DNA of 64,000 nucleotides from an uncultured Eubacteriales bacterium (GCA_949067325.1 CARTDZ010000001.1:4266-68265); one strand, 5' to 3'. Numbered from the stretch's first letter, positions 35,640-53,277 are shown. Notes: generated by a model not told the origin, from the sequence alone. Numbers and translations are program-made.

Positions 35640-36545
35640 ATGTCAGTTATCTCAATGAAACAACTTTTAGAGGCAGGTGTTCACTTTGGTCACCAAACTA
35701 GAAAGTGGAACCCTAAGATGAAAAAATATATCTTCACTGCAAGAAATGATATTCACATCATCAACCTCGAAGACACTTCTGTGCAAGTAGACAAAGCATA
35801 CTCTTTTGTACGCGACGTCATTGCAACAGGCAAAAACATTCTCTTTGTCGGCACAAAAAAGCAGGCACAAGAGGCTGTAAAAGAAGAGGCAGAACGCTGC
35901 GGAATGTTCTACATCAACACTCGTTGGCTTGGTGGCTGCCTTACAAACTTCAAGACAATCAAGTCTAGAATTGAACGTCTTAACAAACTCAACCAAATGG
36001 AAAAGGTTGGCGAGTTTGACCTTCTTCCAAAAAAGGAAGTTACTCTTCTTAAGGCAGAACGCGACAAACTTGAGAAAAACCTTGGCGGTATCAAAGAAAT
36101 GAGAGACCTTCCAGGCGTGGTTTTTGTGGTTGACCCAACTTGTGAACATATTTGCGTTCATGAATGTAAGGTGCTTGGCATACCAATGGTTGGCCTTGTA
36201 GACACAAACGGCAACCCAGACGGTATCGACTGCGTAATTCCAGGAAACGACGACGCAATCAGATCAGTTAAGCTCATCGCTTCAGCAATCGCAGACGCAG
36301 TTATCGAAGCAAGAGAAGGCGTTTCTATGAAGAAAGAAGAAGCGGCTGAAGAGGAAGAAATCGACATCGAAAAAGCACTTGCTGAAACAAAACCAAACCT
36401 TGAAATCGCAGAAGCAGGCGAAGAAAAACGCAAAAAGACTGCAAGAAAAAAGCCAGCTCCAAAAAAGAAAGCTGAACCAAAAGCTGAAGCTAAAACTGAA
36501 AACAAAGCAGAAGCAAAAGAAGCAGCTCTTCAAGAAAACAAATAA
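35640..36545 (+). CDS. rpsB: 30S ribosomal protein S2 with a ~70-aa K/E/A-rich C-terminal tail
   Basis: [30 protein letters not shown] at 35640 follows AAAGGAGG (the ORF track starts at 35574). Confidence 0.95.
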
Positions 36546-36595
36546 TCAAAATTGATTTATAAAATAATTAAATTGAATAATAAAGGAGAATTATT

Positions 36596-37252
36596 ATGAG
36601 TTTCACAGCAAAAGACGTTGCAGAACTTAGAGCAAGAACAAACGCAGGCATGATGGACTGCAAAAAAGCACTCACTGAATGTGATGGCGACTTTGAAAAA
36701 GCAGCACTTTGGCTTCGCGAAAAAGGCATCGCTGCAGCAGCAAAAAAACAATCAAGAATTGCCTCTGAAGGTATCGTTACATCTTATATCCACATGGGAG
36801 GTAAGATTGGCGTTCTTGTAGAAATCAACTGCGAAACAGACTTCGTTGCAAAAACAGATGCTTTCGTTCAACTTGGCAAGGATATTGCTATGCAAATTGC
36901 AGCAGCAAACCCAAAATATGTCAGAATTGAAGAAGTGCCAGCTGAAGACGTTGAAAAAGAAAAAGAAGTACTTCGCGTTCAAGCCGCAAACGAAGGAAAA
37001 CCAGCTCAAATCATCGAAAAAATGGTTGAAGGAAGAGTTAAAAAGTTCTATCAAGACGTTTGCCTTATGGAACAAACTTATGTAAAAGACCAAAGCATGA
37101 CTATTTCTCAATACATCAACGAAATGATCTTGAAAATTGGCGAAAAAATCACAGTTCGTCGTTTCACTCGTTACGAAATGGGTGAAGGCCTTGAAAAAAG
37201 ACATGACGACCTTGCAGCTGAAGTTGAAAAACAAATGAAGGGCAACAACTAA
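36596..37252 (+). CDS. tsf: elongation factor Ts (short form)
   Basis: [23 protein letters not shown]...LREKG. Confidence 0.95.
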
Positions 37253-37350
37253 TTTGCCCAAACTATTGTGGTTTGACAACAAAAGCAAAAAAAATGTTTA
37301 ACAAATTGATAAAAAAGTCGGGGTTTTCTCCGTCTTTTTTCTTTTGACTA

Positions 37351-37379
37351 TTGACAAAATGATGTATATAATATATAAT
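37351..37379 (+). promoter_or_regulatory. perfect consensus sigma-A promoter of the 950-aa ORF
   Basis: TTGACA(37351-37356), 17-bp spacer, TATAAT(37374-37379). A second TTGACT lies at 37344. Confidence 0.6.
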
Positions 37380-37414
37380 TTTAAAGAAATAATTATATAC
37401 TTTTGGAGGAATAA

Positions 37415-40267
37415 ATGGCAAGAGCGTCAAGACAAGCCTTAATCAATGCGGCAACACCAAACTTAAAAAGTCAAAGCAGTGAAATTTACAACTTCATAAG
37501 GTCAAGTGGTGTATATTTTCAAAACAAACTCAAAGATATCAAAGGCATTCTCAAAGCCCACTTTTGTCTTACTCAAGATGAGGTTGAAGCTCAAATTCTC
37601 AAAATCTGCCAAAGCATGGACAAAACTGCAACGCTTCAACTTTTCGATATTATTGAAGAATTTTCAAAAAACGATATCAAAAATAGGGTGGAAATCAATT
37701 CCTCAAATGTTGAATGGCTTGCAAGTCGTCACAGCTTCGCTTTGACACTTCTTGATAATATACTCGAAATTTTTCACAACGAAACAGACAAGCTTAGTGA
37801 AGAACTTATTGATTGCATTCGCGAGGCAAGAAGAGTGAACATTGATCCTTTCAAGTTTGCAACAAAAACAAATTTGCGATTTGCCTCTTTTGACAAATTT
37901 CAAGAAACTTTAAACGCTCTCACAGTCACAAAGTATGCCTCTCTTGGCGATAAGTCAATCATCAAAACTCAAGAATTTAGCACCTTGATAGAACAATGCA
38001 CAACTCTTGCTTCTAGATTAAAAGCTGAGACTGTTGAAAATATTTTGGATCTTCTTTCAGATTTCGTATATGACAAAAATTCAAAGTCATATCTTGCAGA
38101 CGTAGGCAGAATGCTAAAAGTTTGTCCTTCACTTCTTCTTATCGATGAAGAGACATTTCTTGACACGCTTGCCACAATTGAGCAAGAATTCATTCAAAAA
38201 CGCAATATGACAAGGCTTGAGGTTGTCTCTCGCATTGCAAGAACACCTTCAATTTTGGCTACTTCAACCAAAGTAATAGAAGCTACGCAATCAAGCCTTG
38301 AAAAACAAATCACCAAACTTCTTGCAAAGTCAAAGCTTGTCAAATCTGACGAACGTTCAATCATGTCACAAACTATTGCCAACAATATTGTTTTCAATCT
38401 TGACAACTTCACTCAACTTACTTCAATCAAAGCGGCTGACAACTTTGGTCAAATGGCTGACACGCTAGAACACTTCCTTGGCACTGACAACGCAATTTCT
38501 TGTATGCAAAATCTCTCAATTCTCAAACGCGATCCTGCCGTTGTATCTTATGTGCTTGCAGTGCTTTCAGCTGACAAAGATAGCGAAATTTTAAGAGCGG
38601 ATTTTGTCAACAATCCAACCAAATATTTTGAAAATTATGAAGGGGCTTCATCTTCAACGACTGGAATGGAAATTGAAAGAACTAGACGTGAAAAATTGAC
38701 GTTCAAAGTTGAAAAATTGCCAGAAATCAAAGTTGACGAAGAGCAATTGTTGGAACTCTATCGAAAAATAGACAGGTCAAAACGTGACGAGGTGCAAAAA
38801 CTTCTTGCCAAGGCTCAGCAAGACTTCCTTGAAAAGAAAAGAGCAGCAGAAGAGGCTGCCTTGCGTGAAAAACAAGAAAGAAAGGCTGAAAAAGAACGTC
38901 AAAAAGAAGAAGAACGCCAAAAACGTTTGGAAGCAAAGCGAAAAGCTGACGAAGAAGCTAGAAAAAAGAAGGAAGAAGCAGCCGCAGCTAGAGCCGCTAC
39001 GCTTAAAGCCTTGCAAAATACTCAATCAAGCGGTGAGGTTGATATTGAACAACAGATAAAAACCAAACTACGCAAGTTGACCAATTATTACAAACCTATC
39101 AAAAGCAAGAATGACAATTCAAGAGATATACAAAAGCTTCCAAAACTTATCGAAAATGTTTATGGCCCAATTTATGATCTTTTGAAAAAATACAAAAAAG
39201 ATAAAATAGCTGACCTTACTTCAGTGCAAGAACTTTGTATGCTGGCCACAAGAGTTAAAAATATTGATCAATTTCAGCTTGACAATCTCGAAAAAGTCTT
39301 TATGATGCATAGCATTCTTGTCGACATAATAGATAACAGCAAAATTGAAGATATTATCAACTACTTAAACAGTGAAATAAAAATAGAAGGTCCAGATGCA
39401 GACATATTTGATGTTACAGACATGTCAGCACTGCAATTGCTTGACGATTTTATAAGACCAATTATTCTTGAAGATAGCAAAATCCTCTTAGACCTTATGG
39501 ACAAATGCAAATTTGTGCAAGGTGATGGTTTTAGATTTAACGAAACATATTATCTTATAGCAATAAGAAGCCACCTTGTATCCAATTTAGAAGAAATCGA
39601 AAATGCCGCAAAAGAACACCTTTCAAAAGAAGAAGTTGAAAAATATTTTGCCAGCGAAAATGTAAGAATAGAAAAAGAAAAGATAGACAAATCAATTTCA
39701 CAAAAATCGTTTATCAATCCAATGTTGAATGTCTCACTGCTTCTTCAAGCTTATATTCAACCAGCACTTTTATATCTATTATATAGAACAAATGAAGAAG
39801 GCTATTATCAACCAAAAAACCAAAAGATAAAATATTTGTTGGAAAAAGTGTACAAAAAGCCACTTTCACCTTTCAAACCAAAAGATATAAACCAAACTGA
39901 TTTCGAAAATTACTCTTACTATTTATCAAACTGCCAAATACTAGAGACGCTCGAAAGTTTTATAATCGCCATAGGCAATATAAATCAATCTATGCAAGGC
40001 ATCGAAGTGAAAGATGGCTATGTTTACTTCTTCTCTGGCCAGATCATAAGTGATGAAAATATAGAGCACGCCATGGTGAAGGGTAGGCTAAAAATTAATG
40101 ATGACGATATAAGAACCCTTCTTCCAGCCTTCAAAAAATATTTCGATATCAATGGTTTAGGTTTATATGATCCAAGATTTATAAGTGGCACGGACAATGG
40201 AAAAGAATTTTTACATGTAAACGAAATGCTTGTTGAATCTTATAATGCCGAACAAAATTGCAAATAG
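37415..40267 (+). CDS. large hypothetical protein (950 aa) with a central charged coiled-coil
   Basis: GGAGG RBS. The uninterrupted ORF has helical-looking N- and C-terminal halves joined by KRAAEEAALREKQERKAEKERQKEEERQKRLEAKRKADEEARKKKEEAAAARAA. No catalytic motif recognised. Confidence 0.8.
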   Translation: MARASRQALINAATPNLKSQSSEIYNFIRSSGVYFQNKLKDIKGILKAHFCLTQDEVEAQILKICQSMDKTATLQLFDIIEEFSKNDIKNRVEINSSNVEWLASRHSFALTLLDNILEIFHNETDKLSEELIDCIREARRVNIDPFKFATKTNLRFASFDKFQETLNALTVTKYASLGDKSIIKTQEFSTLIEQCTTLASRLKAETVENILDLLSDFVYDKNSKSYLADVGRMLKVCPSLLLIDEETFLDTLATIEQEFIQKRNMTRLEVVSRIARTPSILATSTKVIEATQSSLEKQITKLLAKSKLVKSDERSIMSQTIANNIVFNLDNFTQLTSIKAADNFGQMADTLEHFLGTDNAISCMQNLSILKRDPAVVSYVLAVLSADKDSEILRADFVNNPTKYFENYEGASSSTTGMEIERTRREKLTFKVEKLPEIKVDEEQLLELYRKIDRSKRDEVQKLLAKAQQDFLEKKRAAEEAALREKQERKAEKERQKEEERQKRLEAKRKADEEARKKKEEAAAARAATLKALQNTQSSGEVDIEQQIKTKLRKLTNYYKPIKSKNDNSRDIQKLPKLIENVYGPIYDLLKKYKKDKIADLTSVQELCMLATRVKNIDQFQLDNLEKVFMMHSILVDIIDNSKIEDIINYLNSEIKIEGPDADIFDVTDMSALQLLDDFIRPIILEDSKILLDLMDKCKFVQGDGFRFNETYYLIAIRSHLVSNLEEIENAAKEHLSKEEVEKYFASENVRIEKEKIDKSISQKSFINPMLNVSLLLQAYIQPALLYLLYRTNEEGYYQPKNQKIKYLLEKVYKKPLSPFKPKDINQTDFENYSYYLSNCQILETLESFIIAIGNINQSMQGIEVKDGYVYFFSGQIISDENIEHAMVKGRLKINDDDIRTLLPAFKKYFDINGLGLYDPRFISGTDNGKEFLHVNEMLVESYNAEQNCK

Positions 40268-40296
40268 CAATTAAAAAGCCAAAGCCTAAAAAATGA

Positions 40297-40324
40297 AAAG
40301 CAGAGAAAATCTGCTTTTTCTTTT
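40297..40324 (+). terminator. rho-independent terminator after the 950-aa ORF
   Basis: AAAGCAGA/TCTGCTTT stem with a GAAAA loop, followed by a T-run. Confidence 0.55.
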
Positions 40325-40428
40325 ATCATTTATTAGACCTTTTTAGCATAAATTTTTATGATAAGAAGGCCAAATCATTTGCAAATTCTATCGTTTTATT
40401 GTAAACTATCATGGAAGGAGAAAATTTT

Positions 40429-40995
40429 ATGAATGAAATGGTAGATGAAATTATGCTTTCTTGTCAAGAAGAGCTTGAAAAAGCTATCAATCACCAAAAA
40501 AATGAATATATGGTTATTCGTGCTGGGAGGGCAAATCCTCATATCTTAGACAAAGTCTCTATCGACTATTATGGCGTGCCAACTCCAATCAAAAACATGG
40601 CAAGTATAACCGTGCCAGAAGCAAGAATGCTTGTCATTTCAGTTTGGGACGCATCTCAAGTCAAAAATGTTTCAAAAGCAATTGCAATGGCTGACCTTGG
40701 CGTAACTCCAAATGACGACGGCAAAGTTATCAGACTTACTTTTCCAATTTTGACAGAAGAACGTCGTCGCGAAATCGTCAAAACAGTCAAGAAAATCGCA
40801 GAAGAAACCAAAATCACTGCTCGTGGTGCAAGAAGAGACGCTCTCTCAATGCTCAAAGATCTTCAAAAGGAAGGTACGCTTTCAGAAGATATGCTTGCTT
40901 CACTTGAAGATGATGTTCAAAAACTTATTGATGACGCAATTGTAAAAATTGAAGAAAACTGCAAACTTAAAGAAAAAGAAATTATGGACGTGTAG
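40429..40995 (+). CDS. frr: ribosome recycling factor
   Basis: ...MVIRAGRANPHILDKVSIDYYGVPTPI...LTEERRREIVK. ATG at 40429 follows GGAAGGAG. Confidence 0.9.
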   Translation: MNEMVDEIMLSCQEELEKAINHQKNEYMVIRAGRANPHILDKVSIDYYGVPTPIKNMASITVPEARMLVISVWDASQVKNVSKAIAMADLGVTPNDDGKVIRLTFPILTEERRREIVKTVKKIAEETKITARGARRDALSMLKDLQKEGTLSEDMLASLEDDVQKLIDDAIVKIEENCKLKEKEIMDV

Positions 40996-41011
40996 AAAAA
41001 AGGATCTTTTT

Positions 41012-41710
41012 ATGCAAAAACTTCTCTCAAACTTGCCACTTCATATTGGGATCATTATGGACGGAAATGGTAGATGGGCAACAAGACGTGGCCTTCCTCG
41101 CAATCTTGGCCATAAGGAAGGAATGAGGGCTGTGGAACGAACTATTGATGCTCTTATCAAGTTTGGTATAAAAGTTGTCACCTTTTTTGCTTTTTCAACT
41201 GAAAACTGGAAGAGAAGCAAAGAAGAAATCGAAGGCATTTTTGCTTTGGTTCGAGATTACCTCAACACAAACTCAAATTATTTCAGCGAAAAGGGTGTAA
41301 AGGTTCGTTCAATGGGTGACCTTGACAAGTTTCCAAAAGACCTCACTTCAGCCCTTGAAAATGCTAAAGAAGAAACAAAACACAACGACAAATTAGTTTT
41401 AAATCTGGCTCTAAATTATGGCGGACGCGATGATATAACTTATTCTGTCAACAAACTTATAAAAAGCGGCAAAAAGGCAATAACTGAAAAGGACATTCTT
41501 GACAATCTTTATTCAGAAGGTTTGCCAGAACCTGATCTGATAATAAGAACAAGCGGAGAACAACGCATTTCAAACTTTATGATCTATCAGGCCGCGTATA
41601 GTGAATATTATTTCACCAAAACATATTGGCCTGACTTTGATGAAAAATGTTTGAAAAAGGCACTTATTGCTTTTCAAAAACGCGAAAGACGCTATGGAGG
41701 AATAAAATGA
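41012..41710 (+). CDS. uppS: undecaprenyl diphosphate synthase
   Basis: HIGIIMDGNGRWA, FAFSTENWKR and RTSGEQRISNF motifs. The internal ATG at 41012 is preferred over 40949, which overlaps frr. Confidence 0.9.
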   Translation: MQKLLSNLPLHIGIIMDGNGRWATRRGLPRNLGHKEGMRAVERTIDALIKFGIKVVTFFAFSTENWKRSKEEIEGIFALVRDYLNTNSNYFSEKGVKVRSMGDLDKFPKDLTSALENAKEETKHNDKLVLNLALNYGGRDDITYSVNKLIKSGKKAITEKDILDNLYSEGLPEPDLIIRTSGEQRISNFMIYQAAYSEYYFTKTYWPDFDEKCLKKALIAFQKRERRYGGIK

Positions 41711-42666
41711 AAAATAGACTTATGACATCTTTAGGTATAGTTTTAGTCTTAGCCCTTGCATTTGTTTTAAAAATTTATGTAAGCGACTATTTCTTTGACG
41801 CTCTTCTTTTGACTGTGGCGTGTTTCTGCGCTTACGAGATGTCTCGTCTACTCACAAAAATGGGCAAATACCATGAAAAATGGGTGGTATATATTTTTCC
41901 AGCCATTTTTGCGTTGGTCTTGCTTTTAAGTGCAGGTTTTGATAGCGAATATTCTATCACTTTTGCAATACTCACTTGCATTGGCTTGATAGCACTTGCT
42001 TTTTTGGCAGTATTTCTTATAAACATTATTTTCGCAAGAAAAAGCGAAAAAGAAATAAGATATAGAAAACTTCAAAAGACTGTAAAAACCTATTCACTTG
42101 ACAAGGCCTTGAACACAATCGTAGCTCTTGTATATCCAAGCTTTATGTTTATATTTATGCTCGTTTTAAATCATATCGACGATTTTTCAACGACTTTTAA
42201 AAATGTTTCAGCTTTTGAAGGCTGGCTTTCATTTGTAGCTTTGCTTTTCGCTTTTCTTATTCCTATCTTCAGCGACACTTTTGCTTTTCTTACAGGAAGT
42301 GTAATAGGCGGCAAAAAGCTTTACCCAAAGGTTAGTCCTAAAAAGACAATTTCTGGTGCTGTTGGAGGAATGGTTTTCACAGTCCTTCTTTCGGTCGCAA
42401 TTTATTTTATCCTAAACTCAATTCAAACCTTTTATTTTGTGTTTAGTGCAACAGGCTTTGCTTTTTGGAAGATTATGCTTATCGCTTTCTTTGGTTCTAT
42501 TGTTTCACAATGTGGCGACCTCTTCGAGTCGCTCCTAAAACGCCACGCCGACGTCAAAGATGCTGGCCGCATCTTGCCTGGGCACGGCGGAATGCTTGAC
42601 AGGTTTGATTCCTACGTCTTTGTTGCGCCTTTTCTCATGCTTAGCTTTATTTTTGTTTTGATTTAA
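41707..42666 (+). CDS. cdsA: phosphatidate cytidylyltransferase
   Basis: ESLLKRHADVKDAGRILPGHGGMLDRFDS signature. Its ATG overlaps the uppS stop (ATGA). Confidence 0.85.
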   Translation: MKNRLMTSLGIVLVLALAFVLKIYVSDYFFDALLLTVACFCAYEMSRLLTKMGKYHEKWVVYIFPAIFALVLLLSAGFDSEYSITFAILTCIGLIALAFLAVFLINIIFARKSEKEIRYRKLQKTVKTYSLDKALNTIVALVYPSFMFIFMLVLNHIDDFSTTFKNVSAFEGWLSFVALLFAFLIPIFSDTFAFLTGSVIGGKKLYPKVSPKKTISGAVGGMVFTVLLSVAIYFILNSIQTFYFVFSATGFAFWKIMLIAFFGSIVSQCGDLFESLLKRHADVKDAGRILPGHGGMLDRFDSYVFVAPFLMLSFIFVLI

Positions 42667-42770
42667 TCTTTCAAAACTAAAAAACAAAATTTGCAAATAA
42701 AATTAATATAACAAAACCTGTCAATCAAAAAACTTACAAAAGATATAATTTTTCAATTTTGTGAGGTCAA

Positions 42771-44165
42771 ATGTTTGTTCTTTACATCATTTTAGCAGTT
42801 TTAATACTACTTTTTATGGTTCTTATTCACGAACTAGGTCATTATATTATTGGCCGTCTTTTAAATTTCAAAATTACCGAGTTCTCAATAGGATTTGGCA
42901 AAGCTATATTTTCAAAAACCAACAAACGAGGCGAAAAAATCTCACTTCGTATTTTTCCGCTTGGTGGTTATTGCGCCTTTGCAGGTGAGGGTGATGACGA
43001 AAATCTTGACAATAGCCAAGAGGCTGGCGGGATAAAAACAGACGAAAACTCTGCAAACTCAAAAGACAAAAATATTGCCAAAAAAATTGAAATAAAAGAG
43101 AGCAAGCTTAGCCAAAAAGTTGACGATGAACACTTACAATCAAAAAACAAAACAAAAGAAAAAGTTGAAAAGGCAGAAAACTGTGAAGAGAAAAACATAG
43201 CTAAAAATGAAGGCAATTCTAAAAACTTTGGCCAGAAGCCTGTCAGAAATAAAAAAGAACTTCTTTTCAACGAGCAGCCTGCATGGAAAAGAATTCTTGT
43301 CTTTCTTGCGGGTGTGACTTTCAACTTCGTTACTGCCATCATCTTTTCGCTCATCTTGCTTTGTTCAATAGGGTATGATATACCTCAAGTCACCAAATAT
43401 GATCCTCTCGCAAAACACGTGGCAAGCGAAACCTATGAGTATAATCATGACGCAAGCGAAACCTCTCTTCAAGAAGGCGATGTCATTTATTCAATAAACG
43501 GCCGCAAAATAGATTTTGCTTATGGCAACACTTTTGAAGAAATAATAAAGATCGAACAAGCCAAACTTATCGCATGGGTAAAAGAAAATAAAGATGCAGA
43601 TTTCTCTCAATATCCAGCTATGAATTTTGTCGTAGCTAGAAATGGCGAAAGAATAGAAGTGCCAGTGTCTTTCTTCAAGATTGTTCAAGAAAAAACTACA
43701 ACTGACGAAAGCGGCCAGCAGATCACAAAAACTGAAACCGCTTATTCGCTAGGCATCTACGCAAAGGCCTATAGGCATAGTTTTTTAGAAGCTCTTCAAA
43801 GAGCAATACCATTCTCTTTTGGTCTTGCTTGGGTAGTTCTTAAAAGTTTGTGGCTGCTTATTACCTTCCAGCTGGGCGTAGAAGCAATAGGTGGGCCAAT
43901 CACAACCATAACAACCATCGCAACAGTGACACAGGCAAGTGCGGCAAACTTACTTGTGCTTATACCTCTCATATCGGCAAACCTTGCCATTTTCAACCTG
44001 CTGCCAATTCCAGCGCTCGATGGCTCTCATGTGCTTTTTACAACAATCGAATGGATACGCAAAAAACCAATAAACCGCAAAATTGAAAACATGATACACA
44101 CCATTGGCCTAGCAGTTTTGTTCGGTCTTGTCATACTGGTTGACATTTTGCATTTCCTGTTGTAA
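42771..44165 (+). CDS. rseP: RIP zinc metalloprotease RseP/RasP (M50) with a low-complexity insertion
   Basis: HELGHY, a PDZ-like LQEGDVIYSINGRKI and NLLPIPALDGSH are present. A ~95-aa D/E/K/N-rich insert follows the first TM region (about nt 42987-43266). Confidence 0.85.
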   Translation: MFVLYIILAVLILLFMVLIHELGHYIIGRLLNFKITEFSIGFGKAIFSKTNKRGEKISLRIFPLGGYCAFAGEGDDENLDNSQEAGGIKTDENSANSKDKNIAKKIEIKESKLSQKVDDEHLQSKNKTKEKVEKAENCEEKNIAKNEGNSKNFGQKPVRNKKELLFNEQPAWKRILVFLAGVTFNFVTAIIFSLILLCSIGYDIPQVTKYDPLAKHVASETYEYNHDASETSLQEGDVIYSINGRKIDFAYGNTFEEIIKIEQAKLIAWVKENKDADFSQYPAMNFVVARNGERIEVPVSFFKIVQEKTTTDESGQQITKTETAYSLGIYAKAYRHSFLEALQRAIPFSFGLAWVVLKSLWLLITFQLGVEAIGGPITTITTIATVTQASAANLLVLIPLISANLAIFNLLPIPALDGSHVLFTTIEWIRKKPINRKIENMIHTIGLAVLFGLVILVDILHFLL

Positions 44166-44174
44166 AATATAGCC

Positions 44175-45701
44175 ATGGAACTTCTCGACAAAATCAACAA
44201 ACAATTTGACAATAAATACAAATTTTTAAAACTTTTTGACGTGGTCTATGATACAAACGCACTTATCTGCACCATCTGCTTTCTCTATCCTTACCAAATG
44301 ACAGATGTGGGCAGCGAGATGAGAGGTGAATTGGAGACCTTTGTCAAAGAGTTTTTTTCGCTTAACTGCGATGTGCGAGTAAAGTTTAAAAAAAGCTTTC
44401 TTGATGAAAAACTTATCAAAATCGAAGTCAAAAACTTCTTTGAAAAATATCATAAGTCTCTTGTGCCTTTTATAAATGTTGACAACATAACGTCTTCTTA
44501 CAAAGACTATGACGTTGAGGTAAATGTTGGCCTTAATCAAGATGTTCTCTCAATGCTCGATGAAGGCGAGCTTAAAGCGGAACTCCACAAATTTCTGTCA
44601 AATCGCTTTATTGCAAACTTTGCAATAAGTCTTGTTGAACTTGGCGAAACACTGCCAACTGAAATAGACGTTGAAGACCTGCTGCCAGAAGCTCGACCAA
44701 CTGTCGAACGCTATGAAATGATCATTGACAGCGTCCTCTTCGGTGGTGACATCGCTCCAAAGCCAGAATACATAAAAAACAACAAAAAGCCTAAAAACTC
44801 AGTCATTCTTGGCGGCACAATCTCTGCTTTTACACGCAAGAGCTTTATCGCTAAAAAGGGGAGATACGCAGGACAAGAACGAATTTATTATTCCTTCTCA
44901 CTCAAAGATGACGCGAGTGTAGATGTTATCTATTTCTGTTCAAAAGCAAACGAGAAAAAAATGGAAACTCTTTCTGATGGCATGAGCATAATTTGCGTCG
45001 GCGACTTGGTAAGAGGTCTGAATGGTAACCTTACATATCAAATAAAAAAGCTTTCTCTTGCCACAGCCAAAAAAGTTGAAGTGATTGTAAATGCACCAAG
45101 CGGTCGCCATAAGCAAGTGGTATTTGCAGAGCCTATCGAAACTCAGTCACAATCAAACCTATTTGAAGACAAGCCAACCTACAATGACAACATTATGAAC
45201 AATTCTTTTGTCGTCTTTGATATCGAGACTACAGGGCTTGACCCAGAAAGCTGCGAAATCACTGAAATAGGTGCTGTAAAAATAGTTGGCGGTGTTATAA
45301 AAGAACGCTTTGCTTCCTTCGTCAAACCAAATGGAAAAATACCTAAAGAAGTGCAAGAGCTTACTCACATAACTGACGAAATGGTTGCAAACGCACCAAG
45401 CATTGAGTATGTCATACGCGACTTTTATGATTTCACTCGTGGAAGCATTATAAGCGGCTACAACATAATCGGTTTTGATATGAAATTCATCACAAAAGCA
45501 GGCAAAAATTATGGCCTCAAATTTGATAATGACCTGCTTGATACGCTCATAATCGCTCGCACAAGCGGCCTGAGAGTTTCAAATTTCAAACTCGGCACTG
45601 TTGTAAACGCTTTGGGCATAACTCTAGACGGCGCACACAGAGCTTACAACGACGCTCACGCCACAGCACAAGTGCTGCTTGCTCTTTCAAAGAAAAAGTA
45701 A
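44175..45701 (+). CDS. PolC-like N-terminal/OB region fused to a DEDDh 3'-5' exonuclease (no polymerase or PHP domain)
   Basis: ExoI FVVFDIETTGL, ExoII GYNIIGFDMKFI and ExoIII HRAYNDAHATA are present. The upstream segment VILGGTISAFTRKSF...YYSFSLKDDASVDVIYF...MSIICVGDLV reads like the PolC OB domain. The gene lies between rseP and rimP. Confidence 0.7.
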   Translation: MELLDKINKQFDNKYKFLKLFDVVYDTNALICTICFLYPYQMTDVGSEMRGELETFVKEFFSLNCDVRVKFKKSFLDEKLIKIEVKNFFEKYHKSLVPFINVDNITSSYKDYDVEVNVGLNQDVLSMLDEGELKAELHKFLSNRFIANFAISLVELGETLPTEIDVEDLLPEARPTVERYEMIIDSVLFGGDIAPKPEYIKNNKKPKNSVILGGTISAFTRKSFIAKKGRYAGQERIYYSFSLKDDASVDVIYFCSKANEKKMETLSDGMSIICVGDLVRGLNGNLTYQIKKLSLATAKKVEVIVNAPSGRHKQVVFAEPIETQSQSNLFEDKPTYNDNIMNNSFVVFDIETTGLDPESCEITEIGAVKIVGGVIKERFASFVKPNGKIPKEVQELTHITDEMVANAPSIEYVIRDFYDFTRGSIISGYNIIGFDMKFITKAGKNYGLKFDNDLLDTLIIARTSGLRVSNFKLGTVVNALGITLDGAHRAYNDAHATAQVLLALSKKK

Positions 45702-45942
45702 AATTTCAAAAAAACTGCTACAAAAATTTCAATTTGAAAGATCTTGCAATGATATAAAAAACTATAAAAATAAGAAAATAAAAATCATCAAATTTTGTAA
45801 ATTTAAATTCAAAAAAATATTTTAAAAATATAAAAAGCAAGTCAAAAAAAATAATAAGCAAGAATTTGGCAAAATTAAGAAAAAAACAAACAAAAAATTT
45901 GCAAAAAATTAACAAAAAATTTGCAAAATTTACTTAAAAATC

Positions 45943-45971
45943 TTGCTTTTTATTTTATTTTAGGTTATAAT
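45943..45971 (+). promoter_or_regulatory. sigma-A promoter of the rimP-nusA-infB operon
   Basis: TTGCTT(45943-45948), 17-bp spacer, TATAAT(45966-45971), preceded by about 220 bp of extremely A/T-rich DNA. Confidence 0.5.
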
Positions 45972-45986
45972 ATTTATAACTTGACA

Positions 45987-46013
45987 GGGAGGAGGCAAAA
46001 AAGGCCTCCTCCT
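45987..46013 (+). promoter_or_regulatory. leader hairpin (SD-like / anti-SD arms) upstream of rimP
   Basis: GGGAGGAGGC(45987-45996) pairs with GCCTCCTCC(46004-46012) and is followed by TTGTGTT. A second small hairpin GTGTT-aagac-AACAC lies at 46015-46029, and the real RBS GGAGGTG at 46035-46041. Confidence 0.45.
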
Positions 46014-46047
46014 TGTGTTAAGACAACACTTATGGAGGTGCAAAAAT

Positions 46048-46509
46048 TTGGCAAAAGTCAAGCAAATTTGCGAAGAAAAAGTATGCCCAGTTATTGAGGA
46101 AATGGGTTACGACGTCGTAGAAGTAGAATACGCAAAAAAATCAGATGGAATGAATTTGACATTCTACATTGACTGCGATAAAGGCATCGATCTTGCCGAT
46201 TGTGAAAAAGTGGCAAAAGTAATAGACCCGCTTTTAGACGAACTCAATCCAACCGACGACCAGCCTTATATCATGAACGTAAGTTCTCAAGGCCTTGATC
46301 GCCCACTCAAAACTGAACGCGATTTTAAAAGAAATCTTGGCAAGGAAATCGAAATTGTCCTTTTCGCCAAAATTGACGGCAAGAAAAACTTTAAAGGCGT
46401 CTTAAAAAGTTATGATGAAAAAAGCGTAACCATCACAACGGCAAAAGAAGAAGACCTTGCACTAGAACGCCAAAAGATTGCGCACATCGTGCCAATAATC
46501 AAATTTTAA
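46048..46509 (+). CDS. rimP: ribosome maturation factor RimP
   Basis: ...VCPVIEEMGYDVVEVEY...LTFYID... TTG at 46048 lies 6 nt after GGAGGTG (the ORF track starts at 46015). Confidence 0.85.
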   Translation: MAKVKQICEEKVCPVIEEMGYDVVEVEYAKKSDGMNLTFYIDCDKGIDLADCEKVAKVIDPLLDELNPTDDQPYIMNVSSQGLDRPLKTERDFKRNLGKEIEIVLFAKIDGKKNFKGVLKSYDEKSVTITTAKEEDLALERQKIAHIVPIIKF

Positions 46510-46531
46510 AAGAATTTAAGGAGAAATTAAA

Positions 46532-47713
46532 ATGATAAACAAAGATTTTTTTCAAGCACTTGAAGACCTTGAAACTGAAAAGAAAATAAATAAGGAGACT
46601 TTTATTGAAACTCTTGAGCAAGCTCTTACTTCAGCCTACAAAAAAATGTATGGCGAAGCAAAGTCTGCAATGGTCAAACTTAGCCCAGAGAAAAACACAA
46701 TCAGAGTTTTCTCTTACAAAACAATCGTAGACGAAGTGACTGATCCAGACAAGGAAATCTCACTCAAAGAAGCAAAACTCATCAAAAAGTCTTTCAAACT
46801 AGGTGACCAAGTGCTTAGCGAAGAGGCAACAAAAGACTTTGGCCGTATTGCAGCTCAAACTGCAAAACAAGTTGTTATGCAAAAGCTGAAAGAAATGGAA
46901 AGAGAAATTGCAATCAGCGAACTTGCTGAAAAAGAAGACGAACTTATGACAACAATCATAAAACGCATTGACAACGGCACAGTTTATGTTCAACTTTCTT
47001 CTTCAAACACTGAAGGCGTAATGCTTCCTTCTGACCAAATACCAGGTGAAAAATATAACGTCGGTGATCGTATCAAAGTTTATGTGAAAAAGATAAAGGA
47101 TTCATTCAAAGGCCCACAAATTCAAGTTACTCGAAGCAATATTGGTTTTGTTCGCAAACTTTTCGAACTTGAAATTCCAGAAATTTCAAGCGGCGACGTA
47201 AAAATCAAAAACATCTCACGTGACGCGGGCAACAGAACAAAAGTTGCAGTTTTCACTGACAAGCCAAACCTTGATCCAATCGGCACTTGCGTTGGCTTCC
47301 GTGGACAACGTATTGACACTATCGTTTCAGAACTTAACGGCGAAAAAATTGACCTCATTGAATACAGCGAAGATCCACTTGAATATATCGCGCGTGCTTT
47401 AAGCCCAGCCCAAGTCCTTTCAGTTGAAACAAACGAAAGCCTTATGGCTTCAAGAGTTATTGTGCCAGACGACAAACTTTCACTTGCAATTGGCAGAAAC
47501 GGACAAAATGTTCGTCTCGCAGCAAGACTTACAGGCTGGAAGATAGAAGTTAAGCCAGAAAGTTCAGTTTCAGCATCACAAACAGACACAAGCAAAGATT
47601 ATGAACTTACTGAACTTGCCGATGACGCTTTTGACAATCTTGAGGAACTTGAAGAACTTGACGAACTTACAGAACTTGAGCCAATAGACTTTTCTGACGA
47701 ACCAAACGCATAG
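46532..47713 (+). CDS. nusA: transcription termination/antitermination factor NusA
   Basis: NTD, S1 and two KH domains (GTCVGFRGQRI, AIGRNGQNVRLAARLTGWKI), with an acidic C-terminal tail. Confidence 0.95.
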   Translation: MINKDFFQALEDLETEKKINKETFIETLEQALTSAYKKMYGEAKSAMVKLSPEKNTIRVFSYKTIVDEVTDPDKEISLKEAKLIKKSFKLGDQVLSEEATKDFGRIAAQTAKQVVMQKLKEMEREIAISELAEKEDELMTTIIKRIDNGTVYVQLSSSNTEGVMLPSDQIPGEKYNVGDRIKVYVKKIKDSFKGPQIQVTRSNIGFVRKLFELEIPEISSGDVKIKNISRDAGNRTKVAVFTDKPNLDPIGTCVGFRGQRIDTIVSELNGEKIDLIEYSEDPLEYIARALSPAQVLSVETNESLMASRVIVPDDKLSLAIGRNGQNVRLAARLTGWKIEVKPESSVSASQTDTSKDYELTELADDAFDNLEELEELDELTELEPIDFSDEPNA

Positions 47714-47722
47714 GAGGTAGTT

Positions 47723-47986
47723 ATGAAAAATGAAAGGCTAAGAATGTGCGTTTCATGCCGCGAAATGAAAGACAAAAAACTTCTTGTGCGTGTGGTGAAA
47801 GACAAAGATGGCCTCATCAGCGTCGACCCAACAGGCAAAAAAAACGGCAGAGGTGCATATATTTGCAAAGATAAGACCTGCTTTGAAAAGCTTAAAAAAC
47901 AAAAGGGCCTAAACAAGGCCTTTAAGTGCAATATAAGCGACGAAATCATCGCATCTTTAGAGGAGGAAATTCTTGGACATAACTAA
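47723..47986 (+). CDS. ylxR: YlxR/RnpM (DUF448) RNA-binding protein
   Basis: RMCVSCREMKDKKLLVRVV...GRGAYIC. Confidence 0.85.
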   Translation: MKNERLRMCVSCREMKDKKLLVRVVKDKDGLISVDPTGKKNGRGAYICKDKTCFEKLKKQKGLNKAFKCNISDEIIASLEEEILGHN

Positions 47987-48254
47987 AGCAAAAGGCTATC
48001 TCAACATCGCTCACAAAGCTGGCTATCTCATAATAGGCAGTGACAATTTGAAAGGTTATGACAAAAAACTTTACCTCGTCCTTATCGACAAAACCGCTGG
48101 CAAAAACAGCAACAAAATTTCTTCCACTTTGACAGAAAGGGGAGTGACACTTAAAATAATAGAAAATTTACCAGAACTTGTAAGCATAAAAAACTGCAAA
48201 ATTGTAGGTGTAAAAAATAAGCAACTAAGCGAAAAAATCTTGGAAAATTTGTAA
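47973..48254 (+). CDS. ylxQ: L7Ae-family RNA-binding protein YlxQ
   Basis: 93 aa, located between ylxR and infB, with ...LNIAHKAGYLIIGSDN... Confidence 0.8.
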   Translation: MDITKAKGYLNIAHKAGYLIIGSDNLKGYDKKLYLVLIDKTAGKNSNKISSTLTERGVTLKIIENLPELVSIKNCKIVGVKNKQLSEKILENL

Positions 48255-48289
48255 AATAACCAAACATATAAAAAATTAAGGAGAAAAAT

Positions 48290-50824
48290 TTGGCTAATCA
48301 ATTAAACAATCTTAAAACAATTCATGACTTGCAAAAAGAAGGTGTCATAAACGAAGCTCTTCGCAAGGTTAGGGCAGCAAAAAGCGAAGTTGAAACATTT
48401 GCAAAACGTCTTTTAGATCGCAGGCGCGCAATTGACGACGAAAATGCTAGGGCAGAAGCTAAAAAAGCTCAAGCTCAGGCTCAAAATGAAGCTATGCAAG
48501 CGAAAACGGCAGAAAAAGAGGTTGATATCTCAGTGAAAACTGAACAAACCCCTGTCTTTTCTAATGGCGCAAATACAAAAAACAATTTTCGCTCATTCAA
48601 CCAAAACAGCCAAATTCAAAGGTCAAACAATCCAAGATTTCAAAATCAAAACGCCACTTCACGTCAGGGTGGAACATTCCAAAATGGCCAACGTCCAAAT
48701 GCAAACAACCGCTTTCAAAATCAACAAGGCGGCCAACGCAATGGTCAGGGGCTTGGCAACAGGCCTCAAATGGGTGCAAAACGTCCTGCAAACTTTGTGT
48801 CTACAAAGGGCAACAATTTTCGCTCTTTTGCATCAAATGATTTGTCAGAACTTGAGGTAAAAACAGACCGCAATTTTGCTCAAAAAACAAAAAATGCACA
48901 AAAGCACAACTCTGCAAATATTGATGAACGCAAATCTCAAACTCGTCGTCAGCAAAATGACAATCGTCGAGTAACTTTTATTGAAGACGAAGATGGAATT
49001 CAAGAAGTAAGCTATGGCTCACGAAAGAGCGTTCTCAAAAAGAAAAAAGAAACCGTAGTTGTCGCTCCAGCAGTTACTCATGCGGTGTTTACATCAAAAG
49101 AAATTTCAGTCAAAGATTTCAGCGAAAAAATAGGCAAGCCAGTCACAGAAATCGTTAAAAAACTTATGCTTGTCGGCACTATGGCCACAATCAATTCAAA
49201 TATTGACTTTGAAACGGCCGAACTTATTGCAGCTGACTTTGGCATAACGCTAGAACTTAAAGCTGCAAAATCTTTTGAAGAAAAACTTATCGAAAGTGCA
49301 GCCGAAGACGATGAAGCCTCTCTTATAAAGAGACCTCCTGTGGTAACTGTCATGGGTCACGTCGACCACGGAAAAACTTCTCTCCTCGACGCTTTCAGAA
49401 AGACTGACGTCGTTGCAGGCGAAGCGGGCGGTATAACTCAAAAAATTGGTGCTTATCAAATTGAATTTAACGGCGAAAAAATTACTTTTATTGACACGCC
49501 AGGCCACGCAGCTTTTACAGCTATGCGTGCTAGAGGTGCAAAAAGTACTGATATCGCAATTCTTGTCGTTGCAGCTGATGACGGAATTATGCCTCAAACT
49601 GTTGAAGCTATCGATCATATCAAAGCTGCTGGCGTTCCAATGATTGTTGCAATCAACAAAATGGATAAACAAGAAGCAAACCCAGACCGCATAAAGCAAC
49701 AGCTCACTGAACATGGAATTTTGCCTGAAGAATGGGGTGGAGATGCAATCTGCGTTCCTATTTCAGCCAAAACAGGAATGGGACTTGACCAACTCAAATC
49801 AACAATTCTGCTCGTGGCAGAAATGGCAGAACTTAAAGCCAATCCAAACAAAATGGCAACAGGTGTTGTTATTGAGGCAGAACTTGACAAAAATAGAGGC
49901 CCAGTTGCAACAATTCTTGTGCAAAATGGTACTCTTCGGGTTGGAGATTCAATCATGTCAGGTATAACTTATGGCAAGGTTAGGGCAATGTTCAACGACG
50001 TTGGCAAGTCAGTCAAAGTCGCTCCACCTTCAACTCCAGTATCGGTTTTGGGACTAGGTGAAGTGCCATTTTCAGGTGATCAAGTTTATGCAGTTGAAGA
50101 AACACTTTCAAAACAAGTCATTCAAGAACGTATTGATAAGATTAAAAAAGAACGCGCAATGCAAAGCAGCGGTGTAACCCTTGACAACTTTATGAACAAA
50201 GTTCAAGAAGGCACACTTAAAAACCTTAACATAATCTTGAAGGCAGATTCAATGGGTTCTGTTGAAGCTGTTAAAAATGCCATTCTTGTTATCCGTAATG
50301 AAGAAGCAAAGGTCAACATTGTTCATAGCGGTGCGGGCGCAGTTACTGAATCAGACGTTATCCTAGCGCAAACAACAGGTGCTATTATAATCAGCTTCAA
50401 CCTTAAAACAATAGCCAAAGTTGATGTTTTGGCTGAAAAACTTAAAGTTCAAATCAAAGATTACAAGATCATATATGAAGTTGTTGATGATGTAACAGCT
50501 GCAATCAATGGTATGCTCAGCGTTAAGTATCAAGAAGTTTATATTGGAAACGCTGAAGTGCGAGTAGTTTTCAAACTTTCAACTGCTGGCAAGGTTGCAG
50601 GAAGTTATGTCAAAGATGGCAAATTAACAAGAAACGCTATTGTTAAAGTCAAACGCGGCGACGAAGAGATTGGCGTAACAAGCATCGAATCACTCAAAAT
50701 TGTCAAAGATGAAAAGGCAGAAGTTGCCAAAGGTTTTGAATGCGGTGTCAAGCTTCGCGATAATATTGACTTTAAAGAAGGCGATATTTTGGAATGCTAT
50801 GTCAAAGAAGTCATAAAAAGATAG
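48290..50824 (+). CDS. infB: translation initiation factor IF-2
   Basis: TTG start after AAGGAG. A Q/N/G-rich N-terminal region is followed by the G domain ([21 protein letters not shown]) and domains II-IV. Confidence 0.95.
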
Positions 50825-50827
50825 AAG

Positions 50828-50875
50828 GAGGGAGGAATTTTTAGCATAAGAAAGCTTATTCCTCTTTCTTATTTT
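50828..50875 (+). terminator. hairpin plus T-rich tract immediately after the infB stop (terminator/attenuator-like)
   Basis: GAGGGAGGAAT(50828-50838) pairs with ATTCCTCTTTC(50858-50868), including two G-U pairs that only work on the + strand RNA. TTATTTT follows. Confidence 0.4.
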
Positions 50876-50896
50876 ACTCATAAGGATTTTATAGGT

Positions 50897-50988
50897 GGCG
50901 GAAGTCCAAACTTTGCTAGATGCAAAGTTTGTTCCTGCTGCCGAGGCAGCAGGAACTGCGAAAGCTTGCAGCTTTCGCGACTTCCGCC
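50897..50988 (+). ncRNA. 92-nt perfect four-way-junction element (unknown function; strand not determinable from pairing)
   Basis: The closing stem pairs 50897-50906 with 50979-50988. It encloses three hairpins (50907-50931, 50932-50955, 50958-50978). There are 39 Watson-Crick pairs, no mismatches, and 2 unpaired junction nt. Confidence 0.5.
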
Positions 50989-51054
50989 AAAAGCTGTCGC
51001 CTTCGTCTAAGCCTTTTCTTAAAATCAAACAAAAACTATAAAAGGAGAAACATT

Positions 51055-51432
51055 ATGTCAAATCGAATAGAAAGAGCCAATAGTGAAGTTCAAAGATGCA
51101 TTGCGCAAATCTTAACTACCAAAATGAGTGATCCTCGTTTAAGTCCATTTCTTTATGTCAGCGAAGTTAAGCTTACCCCTGATTTTAAATATTGCAAAAT
51201 CAAAGTCGCTCTTGATAGTGATGACAAAGCCTATCTCAAGCAAAATCTTGAAGTTCTGCAAAAGTCAGAAGGCTTTATCAAACGTGAACTATCGAAAATT
51301 GTCGATATGCCATCAATGCCAAAACTTGTTTTTGAACTTGACAAAGGCACTAGTGCAACAATCAGGGTAAACGAACTTTTAAAAAACCTTAATATTCCAA
51401 AACTGGAAGAAGAGGAGGGCGAAGATGAATAA
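51055..51432 (+). CDS. rbfA: ribosome-binding factor A
   Basis: MSNRIERANSEVQRCIAQIL...VSEVKLTPDFKYCKI. ATG at 51055 follows AAAGGAG (the ORF track starts at 50920, inside the structured element). Confidence 0.9.
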   Translation: MSNRIERANSEVQRCIAQILTTKMSDPRLSPFLYVSEVKLTPDFKYCKIKVALDSDDKAYLKQNLEVLQKSEGFIKRELSKIVDMPSMPKLVFELDKGTSATIRVNELLKNLNIPKLEEEEGEDE

Positions 51433-52432
51433 AAATGACAAAAAAATTTTGCAAAAGATAAAAAAAGAAATCAAGGCGGCAAAAAATATTGCCATCTTTT
51501 GTCATAGAAGCCCTGATATGGACTGCCTTGGCTCAATGTTTGCTCTTGGCGAAGCGCTCGAAAGAATAGGTAAGAAAGTAACAAGATTTAGTGCTGATAA
51601 ATTATCAATTGACCATAAGGCTCTCTTTGACGAAAAAGCAGTTATGACAGAAAAACAAAATGCCGACAACTTTGACCTTTTTATATCTGTTGATGTTGCA
51701 ACAGGAAAAATGCTTGATAAATTTGAAGACTATTTCACAAATTTTCCACTAACTATAAAAATTGATCACCACAATGCGGGTGAAAAAGACAGCTATGCAC
51801 TTCTAAACTATGTTGACAGTCAAAAGTCCTCTTGTTCAGAAATTATATTTGAGCTTATTGAAGCCTTAAAAATCAAAATCACACCTACAATTGCTACATA
51901 TCTTTACGCAGGTCTTTCAGCTGACACCAACTCTTTTATAAATACTAACACAAACTTAAATTCCTTCCAAACAGGTTGCAAACTTTTAAAGCTCTCAGCA
52001 GATATCCATAAAGTCAATGAGGCAGAATATAGACTTGTTACTCGCACTTCAATTGCAATGAAAAAAGTATTATACAACAATTTGCAAATCTTTAAGGAAG
52101 GCTTTGCAATCTGTCTTATCTCAAAAGAAGATTTAACCAAAAATAAAGCAGACAAATCAGATTGTTCAACCTTTAGCAGCGAAATGCTTGCAATAGAAGG
52201 GGTAAACATCAGTTGCAACATTACAGAACATGAAAACAAAAAATATTCTCTTTCATTTCGTTCACGCAAAGGTTTTAATGTAAATGGAATTGCCAAAACT
52301 TTCGGCGGTGGCGGTCATATCGAAGCTTCAGGTGCAAGAATAGAAAATTGCACTGAAGAACAAGTTGTAAAAATGGTCGCAAAAGCCATTCGCGAAAACT
52401 TAAAAAATCTGAAAAGTCAGGAAAGAGTATGA
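51425..52432 (+). CDS. nrnA: DHH-family phosphoesterase (NrnA-like nanoRNase/pAp phosphatase)
   Basis: CHRSPDMDCLGS, IDHHNAG and the DHHA1 motif GGGGH. Confidence 0.8.
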   Translation: MNKNDKKILQKIKKEIKAAKNIAIFCHRSPDMDCLGSMFALGEALERIGKKVTRFSADKLSIDHKALFDEKAVMTEKQNADNFDLFISVDVATGKMLDKFEDYFTNFPLTIKIDHHNAGEKDSYALLNYVDSQKSSCSEIIFELIEALKIKITPTIATYLYAGLSADTNSFINTNTNLNSFQTGCKLLKLSADIHKVNEAEYRLVTRTSIAMKKVLYNNLQIFKEGFAICLISKEDLTKNKADKSDCSTFSSEMLAIEGVNISCNITEHENKKYSLSFRSRKGFNVNGIAKTFGGGGHIEASGARIENCTEEQVVKMVAKAIRENLKNLKSQERV

Positions 52433-53277
52433 ACAGCTGCATAATATTACTCAACAAACCTCGCGGACTTTCTTCCAACACCTGTGTCAATATTGTCAAG
52501 CGGGCAGTGGGTGCAAAAAAAGCAGGCCACTTAGGCACACTTGACGTGCTTGGCGAGGGACTTCTTCCAATAACAATCAACAAAGCCACTCAGCTCTTTG
52601 ACTTCTATCTTCAAAAAGACAAAGTCTATCAAACAACATTTCGCTTTGGTCAAACAACTGATACCCTCGACCTCGAAGGCGAGATAACGTTAAAAAACGA
52701 TAAAATGGTTACAAAAGAAGAATTGTTAAAAATTCTTCCGTCTCATTGCGGAAAAATATCTCAAATGCCACCAATTTATTCGGCTAAAAAAATAAAAGGT
52801 CAAAAAGCTTATGACCTTGCAAGAGCAGGGCAAGAAGTCAACCTTAAACCTAAAGAAGTCGAAATCTACTCAATTGACCTTATAGCCAATGACAATCCAA
52901 ATGAGTTTACCTTTCGCGTAGCCTGCTCAAGCGGCACATATATCCGTTCGCTTTGTCGTGATATGGCTGCAAGTTTGTCAACATATGGTGTTATGCTCAA
53001 CATAATACGCACAAAATGTGGTGATTTTGACTTAAAAGACGCCTCTACTTTGGAGGAAATCAAACAAGGCAATTTCAAAACAATATCTCTTGAAAGCTTA
53101 TTCAAATCGGCAAAAATAGTTTTCAACAAAAAGGAAACTGATCTTCTTTTAAATGGCGTAAATATTTCTACTGATCTCAAAAATGGTGACTACAATGCTT
53201 ATGCTGATGAAGGTGAATATCTTGGCTTGGTCACCATAGAAAACAACAGGATCAAATTTAAATTTAGATTTGTTTAA
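52429..53277 (+). CDS. truB: tRNA pseudouridine(55) synthase TruB
   Basis: LLNKPRGLSS...GHLGTLDVLGEGLLP. Confidence 0.9.
   Translation: MNSCIILLNKPRGLSSNTCVNIVKRAVGAKKAGHLGTLDVLGEGLLPITINKATQLFDFYLQKDKVYQTTFRFGQTTDTLDLEGEITLKNDKMVTKEELLKILPSHCGKISQMPPIYSAKKIKGQKAYDLARAGQEVNLKPKEVEIYSIDLIANDNPNEFTFRVACSSGTYIRSLCRDMAASLSTYGVMLNIIRTKCGDFDLKDASTLEEIKQGNFKTISLESLFKSAKIVFNKKETDLLLNGVNISTDLKNGDYNAYADEGEYLGLVTIENNRIKFKFRFV

Follow-up and report, generated by a model that had tools for sequence, protein, structure and literature searches.

A polymerase-less derivative of PolC, with N-terminal, OB and exonuclease domains, at the polC position of uncultured Clostridia

PolC is regarded as essential, as the hallmark replicase of the Firmicutes and as an antibiotic target. 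The Bacillus subtilis enzyme carries at its extreme C-terminus the motif QLSLF, which follows the clamp-binding consensus QL[S/D]LF or, more generally, QxxLF (PMC12309361), and the epsilon subunit of Escherichia coli binds the clamp through a short motif, QTSMAF, that adjoins the nuclease domain (PMC3642679). Among Clostridial PolCs, 16% have no nuclease, and some Clostridia possess DnaE1 only (PMC3919608); in B. subtilis, according to one report, the DnaQ domain of PolC complements the proofreading of DnaE3 in trans (PMC12926913). Here we describe a 508-residue protein from an uncultured Eubacteriales bacterium, encoded in a stretch of 64,000 nucleotides (GCA_949067325.1, CARTDZ010000001.1:4266-68265; the window), which stands where other Clostridia carry polC and in which a PolC-type N-terminal domain (NTD), an OB fold and a DEDDh 3'-5' exonuclease (Exo) follow one another, with neither PHP nor polymerase domains. 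The features of the gene and of its immediate neighbours are collected in Table 1.

The C-terminal domain was matched by PF00929 (RNase_T) over residues 341-505 with an E-value of 2e-34 and 120 bits, against a cut-off of 24, and scored 95 with TIGR00573, for which the cut-off is 71.5; by these profiles the protein belongs to the DnaQ/DEDDh superfamily. Its best NCBIfam match was the PolC equivalog PRK00448, aligned at model positions 417-586 with 146 bits, other DEDD families reaching at most 141 bits, and the best sequence match among solved structures was 2p1j, the exonuclease of Thermotoga maritima PolC (E 1.4e-30), followed by the full-length PolC 9qpc. A preliminary description of the locus had proposed a complete DEDDh exonuclease at the C-terminus, and both the motifs that it quoted (FVVFDIETTGL, GYNIIGFDMKFI and HRAYNDAHA) and its OB-like strings were found in the translation. 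The catalytic residues, Asp349, Glu351, Asp435, His488 and Asp493, are conserved in all 229 of the 229 family members aligned, which shows a nuclease under strong purifying selection, with its catalytic site intact.

The N-terminal part proved invisible to sequence-to-profile methods. Pfam gave no domain above threshold there and only sub-threshold hints of an OB fold, and a family profile of residues 1-335 had no match among the sequences of the PDB. When the same profile was compared with 1.84 billion representative proteins, no PolC-length protein appeared in the best 150 of the 457 matches at E<=1e-3, these 150 all being proteins of about 505-545 residues or fragments of such proteins. Such results, together with the closeness of the exonuclease scores (146 bits for PolC and 141 for other DEDD families), speak for an ordinary exonuclease of the DnaQ family that is joined to an unrelated N-terminus and lies beside rimP by coincidence. 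Profile-profile comparison, however, was decisive, in the case of the NTD only with the larger alignments. With small alignments the NTD alone gave a weak hhalign E-value of 0.01, and the whole N-terminal profile, compared with 14 Clostridial PolC N-termini, gave a collinear alignment of 269 columns at a probability of 95% and an E-value of 2e-8; with 229 family sequences against 84 PolC sequences the NTD aligned over 140 collinear columns with a probability of 97% and an E-value of 9e-11, as against 0.15 for the reversed control. The OB part alone matched the PolC OB fold with a probability of 95% and an E-value of 1.5e-8, and a hidden Markov model (HMM) built from the 229 OB sequences recognised 229 PolCs out of 260 at E<1e-3, with a best E-value of 4e-14, and each match lay immediately before the PHP domain.

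Structure prediction pointed the same way. The AlphaFold2 (AF2) model of the protein has a mean predicted local distance difference test score (pLDDT) of 86, and its NTD (pLDDT about 85-92) shows the topology helix-strand-strand-helix-strand twice, which with the hhalign result corresponds to the two KH-like subdomains of PolC. Residues 163-174 in the following linker fall below a pLDDT of 50, and the Arg179 and Tyr180 that close it are invariant in alignments A1 and A2. A Foldseek search of the PDB with the whole model returned the PolC chain 9qpc_A first, with an E-value of 5e-19 over 387 columns, nuclease-only matches covering about 165-175 columns; the isolated OB fold was superimposed on the PolC structure 3f2b_A over 104 columns with an rmsd of 2.0 Å, which was the lowest rmsd, along with the highest TMq, among the OB matches listed. 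We take these comparisons to show that all three domains are homologous to those of PolC and stand in PolC order. That the protein should be an ordinary DnaQ exonuclease with a chance neighbour is in our judgment highly improbable, as it conflicts with profile-profile probabilities of 95-97% for the NTD and OB fold, collinear with PolC and with clean reversed controls, with a multi-domain PolC match at the head of the PDB results, and with positional orthology on both flanks. The preliminary description had read both regions as PolC-like and had named the lack of such similarity in the N-terminal region as what would overturn its reading; the similarity is there. An impression that the family NTDs were closest to those of nuclease-less PolCs was dropped, the score differences being too small to use.

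The gene begins with ATG 9 nucleotides past the stop codon of rseP, is the sole gene between rseP and rimP, as had been stated, and ends 313 nucleotides before rimP. In the window the order of genes is rpsB-tsf-[950-residue open reading frame (ORF)]-frr-uppS-cdsA-rseP-[508 residues]-rimP-nusA-ylxR-L7Ae-infB-rbfA-nrnA-truB, and in three reference loci (L100, L101 and L102) it is rpsB-tsf-pyrH-frr-uppS-cdsA-dxr-rseP-ispG-polC-rimP-nusA-ylxR-L7Ae-infB-rbfA-nrnA-truB; compared with these three, the block at 35574-53277 of the window is without pyrH, dxr and ispG. A polC of 1340-1480 codons occupies the same slot in the reference Clostridia, including one metagenome-assembled genome (MAG) of the Christensenellales (loci L063, L065, L072, L085, L087, L088, L100, L101 and L102), and because full-length polC fills this slot the 508-residue gene can be regarded as polC itself, cut down in place. 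It is, to judge by gene order and domain content, an in-place descendant and positional orthologue of polC. The preliminary description had measured the locus against the Bacillus order rseP-proS-polC, which is not the appropriate reference, the Clostridial order being rseP-ispG-polC-rimP; it was right about the flanks, rseP-[508 residues]-rimP-nusA. The proS gene is not absent from the window, but lies at 62173-63885.

The canonical position that it had assigned to the gene was found occupied in about 57 species, in a scan of one genome per species. In every species rimP-nusA(-infB) follows the family gene wherever the contig reaches that far, and the upstream neighbour is rseP, ispG or rseP-ispG, the species dividing into rseP-upstream and ispG-upstream groups. 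Four species have unrelated genes inserted between the family gene and rimP. Among these inserts are opposite-strand genes between a 510-residue family gene and rimP (L038, 11470-15378, and L039, 11460-14645, both on the minus strand); they encode two paralogous repeat proteins of 617 and 629 residues in one case and a GGDEF/EAL-like protein of 1061 residues in the other.

Table 1. Features of the 508-residue protein and its flanking genes (positions in the window; aa, amino-acid residues)
Feature	Residues	Position	Strand	Basis and remarks
rseP (M50 site-2 protease)		42771..44165	+	PF02163, E 4e-57; upstream flank of the polC slot; synteny, 57 species
508-aa protein gene		44175..45701	+	ORF list; NTD-OB-Exo; PolC derivative without polymerase
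PolC-type NTD, two tandem alpha/beta subdomains	1-160	44175..44654	+	AF2 model, hhalign
NTD-OB linker, low confidence, ending with R179-Y180	161-181	44655..44717	+	pLDDT
OB fold, PolC OB homologue	182-298	44718..45068	+	hhalign, HMM, Foldseek
OB-Exo linker, partly disordered	299-340	45069..45194	+	pLDDT; replaces the PolC linker and PHP-N half
QSNLF, QxxLF island, candidate sliding-clamp-binding motif	326-330	45150..45164	+	Conservation
DEDDh 3'-5' exonuclease domain	341-505	45195..45689	+	PF00929, PRK00448, PDB 2p1j
Catalytic residue	D349	45219-45221	+	
Catalytic residue	E351	45225-45227	+	
Catalytic residue	D435	45477-45479	+	
Catalytic residue	H488	45636-45638	+	
Catalytic residue	D493	45651-45653	+	
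rimP		46015..46509	+	RimP_N and RimP_C Pfam matches on the identical gene in L001; downstream flank; synteny
nusA		46532-47713	+	Next after rimP

What has been cut from polC is its PHP domain and its polymerase. Pfam detected neither a PHP domain (PF02811) nor the Pol III alpha core (PF07733, PF17657) nor a helix-hairpin-helix (HhH) motif in the 508-residue protein, and tblastn with the PolC PHP-N segment and polymerase core found nothing in the window and nothing within 10 kb in about 60 family loci, in agreement with the absence of PHP, palm and fingers noted at the outset. The curated cut-offs for PolC are far from reached, with 146 bits against 873 for PRK00448 and 136 against 1043 for TIGR01405. 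The insertion of the exonuclease within the PHP domain that defines PolC is likewise missing, the intact nuclease having no PHP sequence on either side. Lacking both PHP and polymerase core, the protein cannot polymerise DNA, and, as the polC slot thus holds no polymerase, some other enzyme must copy the chromosome. At the C-terminus the chain ends in ...LALSKKK, three residues past the nuclease domain, with no QLSLF clamp motif, and the tail beyond the nuclease measures 2-12 residues across the family. The Clostridial PolCs collected here end in NQL[ST]LF, an end that the 508-residue protein has lost.

The family to which the protein belongs was at first represented by 120 clusters of 505-524 residues, one of 468 excepted, and the full alignment holds at least 229 full-length clusters with uniform start, end and linker lengths, whose identity to the window protein ranges over 25-78%. 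The conservation in relatives that the preliminary description wished to see checked is thus that of one fixed architecture. All three modules are maintained, with mean pairwise identities of 0.51 for the exonuclease, 0.36 for the OB fold and 0.26-0.32 for the NTD. In databases the members appear as 'exonuclease domain-containing', 'ribonuclease H-like domain-containing' or 'hypothetical' proteins, and all the named ones come from MAGs; the hosts include uncultured Clostridia, 'Christensenellaceae' MAGs, Ca. Onthoplasma, Coproplasma, Scatosoma and Gallimonas. Among the assemblies with a family gene are CAKVNK01 (582-kb contig), DBFWLO01, CALVYP01, CAJFTM01, DVHK01 and CAJFNH01.

A gene at the exact site of polC with two thirds of PolC missing might be a decaying remnant without function, either a pseudogene or an assembly artefact, and poor assemblies do contain polC genes that are broken (L095 and L096). 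Such a remnant would not be expected to keep the same start, end and linker lengths in 229 or more clusters that diverge to as little as 25% identity, nor its catalytic residues at 100%; no PHP or polymerase fragments lie downstream in the approximately 60 loci, and in the window rimP is close by. Moreover, four assemblies made independently (two MAGs at NCBI and two Logan assemblies) carry an identical 508-residue protein, with the genes around it in the same order, so that the locus is not an artefact of assembly; the exact protein is carried by the MAGs GCA_948551495.1 and GCA_948709845.1. With four assemblies and dozens of species in accord, the mis-assembly that the preliminary description had considered fails as an explanation, the remnant is effectively refuted, and the conservation confirms a family under functional constraint, neither pseudogene nor mis-assembly.

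The linker between the OB fold and the nuclease deserves separate consideration. It is 47-55 residues long in 95% of the 229 members, against an OB-nuclease spacing of about 110-120 residues in PolC, and in the AF2 model its pLDDT is 44 at residues 300-309 and 60 at residues 320-329. Within it the QxxLF island stands out: in the 229 sequences Gln326 is conserved in 97%, Leu329 in 80% (Leu, Phe, Ile or Met in 98%) and Phe330 in 89% (Leu in 7%), whereas the flanking positions are conserved to only 20-30%. The conserved QxxLF looks like a sliding-clamp-binding motif, and from this likeness we infer binding to DnaN. A derivation of the linker (HKQVVF...QSNLF) from the first strands of the PHP domain was considered and rejected, as hhalign found no similarity between it and PolC PHP-N.

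Taken together, the evidence is best explained, with a probability that we put at roughly 60%, by an in-place descendant of polC that acts as an active 3'-5' exonuclease, is recruited to the replication fork and proofreads in trans. On this proposal polC would have lost the whole of its PHP domain, polymerase core, HhH motif and C-terminal clamp motif and kept the NTD, OB fold and DEDDh exonuclease. Three tethers may hold the protein at the fork: the PolC-type NTD, for which a clamp-loader contact has been proposed in PolC (discussed in PMC3919608); the OB fold, on single-stranded DNA; and the QxxLF, newly fixed in the flexible OB-Exo linker, on the beta sliding clamp, with a parallel in E. 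coli epsilon. The C-family polymerase that replicates the chromosome, which may be DnaE1 on its own, a PolC lacking the exonuclease or a second PolC elsewhere, would then have its mis-incorporated 3' nucleotides removed in trans. The most likely function, on domain content and motifs, would thus be that of a replisome- or clamp-tethered trans-proofreading 3'-5' exonuclease, and of the options in the preliminary description we favour the 'trans-acting proofreader' and the 'clamp- or tau-interacting fragment', which are mutually compatible.

Several points weigh against this proposal. Binding to the clamp and to the clamp loader is deduced from a short motif and from homology, and even in PolC itself the role of the NTD is a proposal (PMC3919608). 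With a tail of 2-12 residues the protein is without a C-terminal segment like that by which epsilon docks on a PHP domain. The partner polymerase may be a PolC elsewhere or DnaE only, and a protein with a DEDDh nuclease, an OB fold and a clamp motif could equally serve mismatch repair or recombination.

The last point can be put as an explanation in its own right, namely that the protein serves repair or recombination as an accessory exonuclease similar to ExoI or ExoX, which is recruited to clamps that remain on DNA and acts on mismatch-repair or gap intermediates, and that a complete PolC elsewhere in the genome, with a nuclease of its own, does the replicative proofreading. The combination of OB fold and DEDDh nuclease also has the logic of a single-stranded DNA exonuclease, the nuclease of the model matches ExoI, ExoX and the nuclease domain of DinG well, clamp motifs are common among repair proteins (review), and PolC does occur at non-canonical sites in other Clostridia, for example beside purL in the clade of L055, L079 and L080. 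For the PolC NTD, which is retained, no role apart from PolC is known, however; in all species examined the gene keeps to the polC slot of a replication and translation operon block, and a second PolC could not be connected with any of the genomes that carry the family. We consider this explanation unlikely, and regard proofreading in trans at the fork as the better account.

Which polymerase would be served by such a proofreader was approached through the PolC variants returned by a homologue search with the Christensenellales PolC polymerase core and the L055-type PolC. In L097 and L098 (8001-11657) a PolC of 1218 residues has its exonuclease cleanly excised and keeps NTD, OB, PHP and polymerase; it lies at a non-canonical site in the order ftsY-UPF0182-polC. 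The PolCs of L100 (10001-14245) and L101 (10001-14251), of 1414-1416 residues, occupy the canonical ispG-polC-rimP slot; they are full-length and retain the exonuclease domain, but with every DEDDh catalytic residue replaced. A clade of PolCs of about 1345 residues (L055, 664-4704, L079 and L080), comprising more than 120 clusters at an identity of at least 68%, is without about half of the NTD and lies away from ispG and rimP in these three loci, following purL in L079 and apparently in L055. Finally, in L096 (6215-10562) and L095 (6217-10610) the canonical polC was called as two ORFs, of 565 and 853 residues, with the break just past the exonuclease. The 850-residue 'half PolCs' were rejected as separate genes, since they are frameshifted genes at the canonical locus, and the frameshifts are likely to stem from assembly because many neighbouring genes in L095 are split as well. 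Of the nuclease-less, nuclease-dead and relocated PolCs so found, none could be tied to a family-bearing genome, and the ends of the window contig hold no polymerase.

Three arrangements can be envisaged, to which we attach weights by judgment rather than by computation. The genomes may be DnaE1-only, with the 508-residue protein as an epsilon-like subunit, which we regard as possible though short of probable; a complete PolC may lie elsewhere, with the 508-residue protein as its accessory, which seems somewhat unlikely; or a nuclease-less PolC may lie elsewhere, amounting to a functional fission of PolC, which seems rather unlikely. A broader picture would be that the PolC polymerase has disappeared from a whole group of Christensenellales-like gut Clostridia, among them Ca. 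Onthoplasma, Coproplasma, Scatosoma and Gallimonas, which would now be DnaE1-only and keep the NTD-OB-exonuclease with its internal clamp motif as an epsilon-like proofreader, and that this is an independent and recent re-invention, caught in mid-transition from PolC plus DnaE1 to DnaE1 alone. We offer this as speculation that is on balance doubtful.

Other observations were made in the window. No regulatory RNA, obvious terminator or promoter above background was detected around the 508-residue gene, and a phage origin was rejected, the N-terminus having no tblastn match among 50,697 phage records. The 950-residue ORF between tsf and frr (37415-40267, plus strand) has no Pfam match and contains a long Lys/Glu-rich stretch; it occupies the position of pyrH in reference Clostridia, recurs in L001, a contig of the identical strain, and is absent from the relatives L005 and L007, where tsf is directly followed by frr. 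The proS gene, on the plus strand, is situated between xseA and xseB, which encode the large and small subunits of exonuclease VII, and overlaps both by a few bases, an arrangement seen also in L089. A protein of 307 residues (1669-2592, plus strand) is an unusual fusion in which Pfam finds a HIT/DcpS_C and an RNase H domain.

We found no description of a polymerase-less PolC derivative in the literature searched, which included a recent survey of bacterial polymerases and the 2013 survey of the C family. The recent survey was based on complete genomes and on queries trimmed to the polymerase domain (PMC12926913), and so would not have found the present family. The interest of the family lies in a polC that in dozens of uncultured gut species has been shortened at its own site, with the proofreading part kept and polymerisation lost. 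It provides a natural experiment on the role of the PolC NTD, here kept with the nuclease and without the polymerase, on proofreading supplied in trans in the Clostridial PolC plus DnaE1 replication system, and on the way in which a lineage moves between two-polymerase and one-polymerase replisomes. The significance would be greater should the genomes prove to be without PolC.

Compared with PolC as defined by PRK00448 and TIGR01405, the protein has the same order of NTD, OB fold and DEDDh nuclease and the same slot, (rseP-)ispG-X-rimP-nusA, but 508 residues instead of about 1400-1450, lacking both PHP halves, palm, thumb and fingers, HhH and the C-terminal QLSLF. The exonuclease-less and exonuclease-dead Clostridial PolCs (Timinskas et al. 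2013; here P0485/P0430 and P0415/P0425) belong to the same class of bacteria and show the complementary loss of domains: they keep NTD, OB, PHP and polymerase and lose or inactivate the nuclease, whereas the 508-residue protein does the reverse, and the two were not found to occur together. The nuclease-dead PolCs themselves stand at the canonical slot. Together with the present family they show the nuclease and polymerase modules of PolC to be separable. A more distant likeness is to FEN-like 5'-3' exonucleases, stand-alone proteins that take over from the Pol I nuclease domain where Pol I is missing (PMC12926913), in that a nuclease outlives its polymerase, although there the polymerase family and the nuclease fold are different and the task is the processing of Okazaki fragments. 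With E. coli DnaQ (epsilon) the protein shares the character of a separately encoded DEDDh proofreading nuclease, the function of the 508-residue protein being predicted. The clamp motif of epsilon, QTSMAF, lies beside the nuclease on its C-terminal side, and the QxxLF of the 508-residue protein about 15 residues N-terminal of the nuclease; epsilon docks on the PHP domain of alpha through a long C-terminal segment that the 508-residue protein does not have, and has neither the NTD nor the OB fold that the latter possesses. The two have independent evolutionary origins, only the 508-residue protein being derived from PolC. It is thus not a PolC, and would work most like a stand-alone epsilon-type proofreader that has a different origin and different docking modules.

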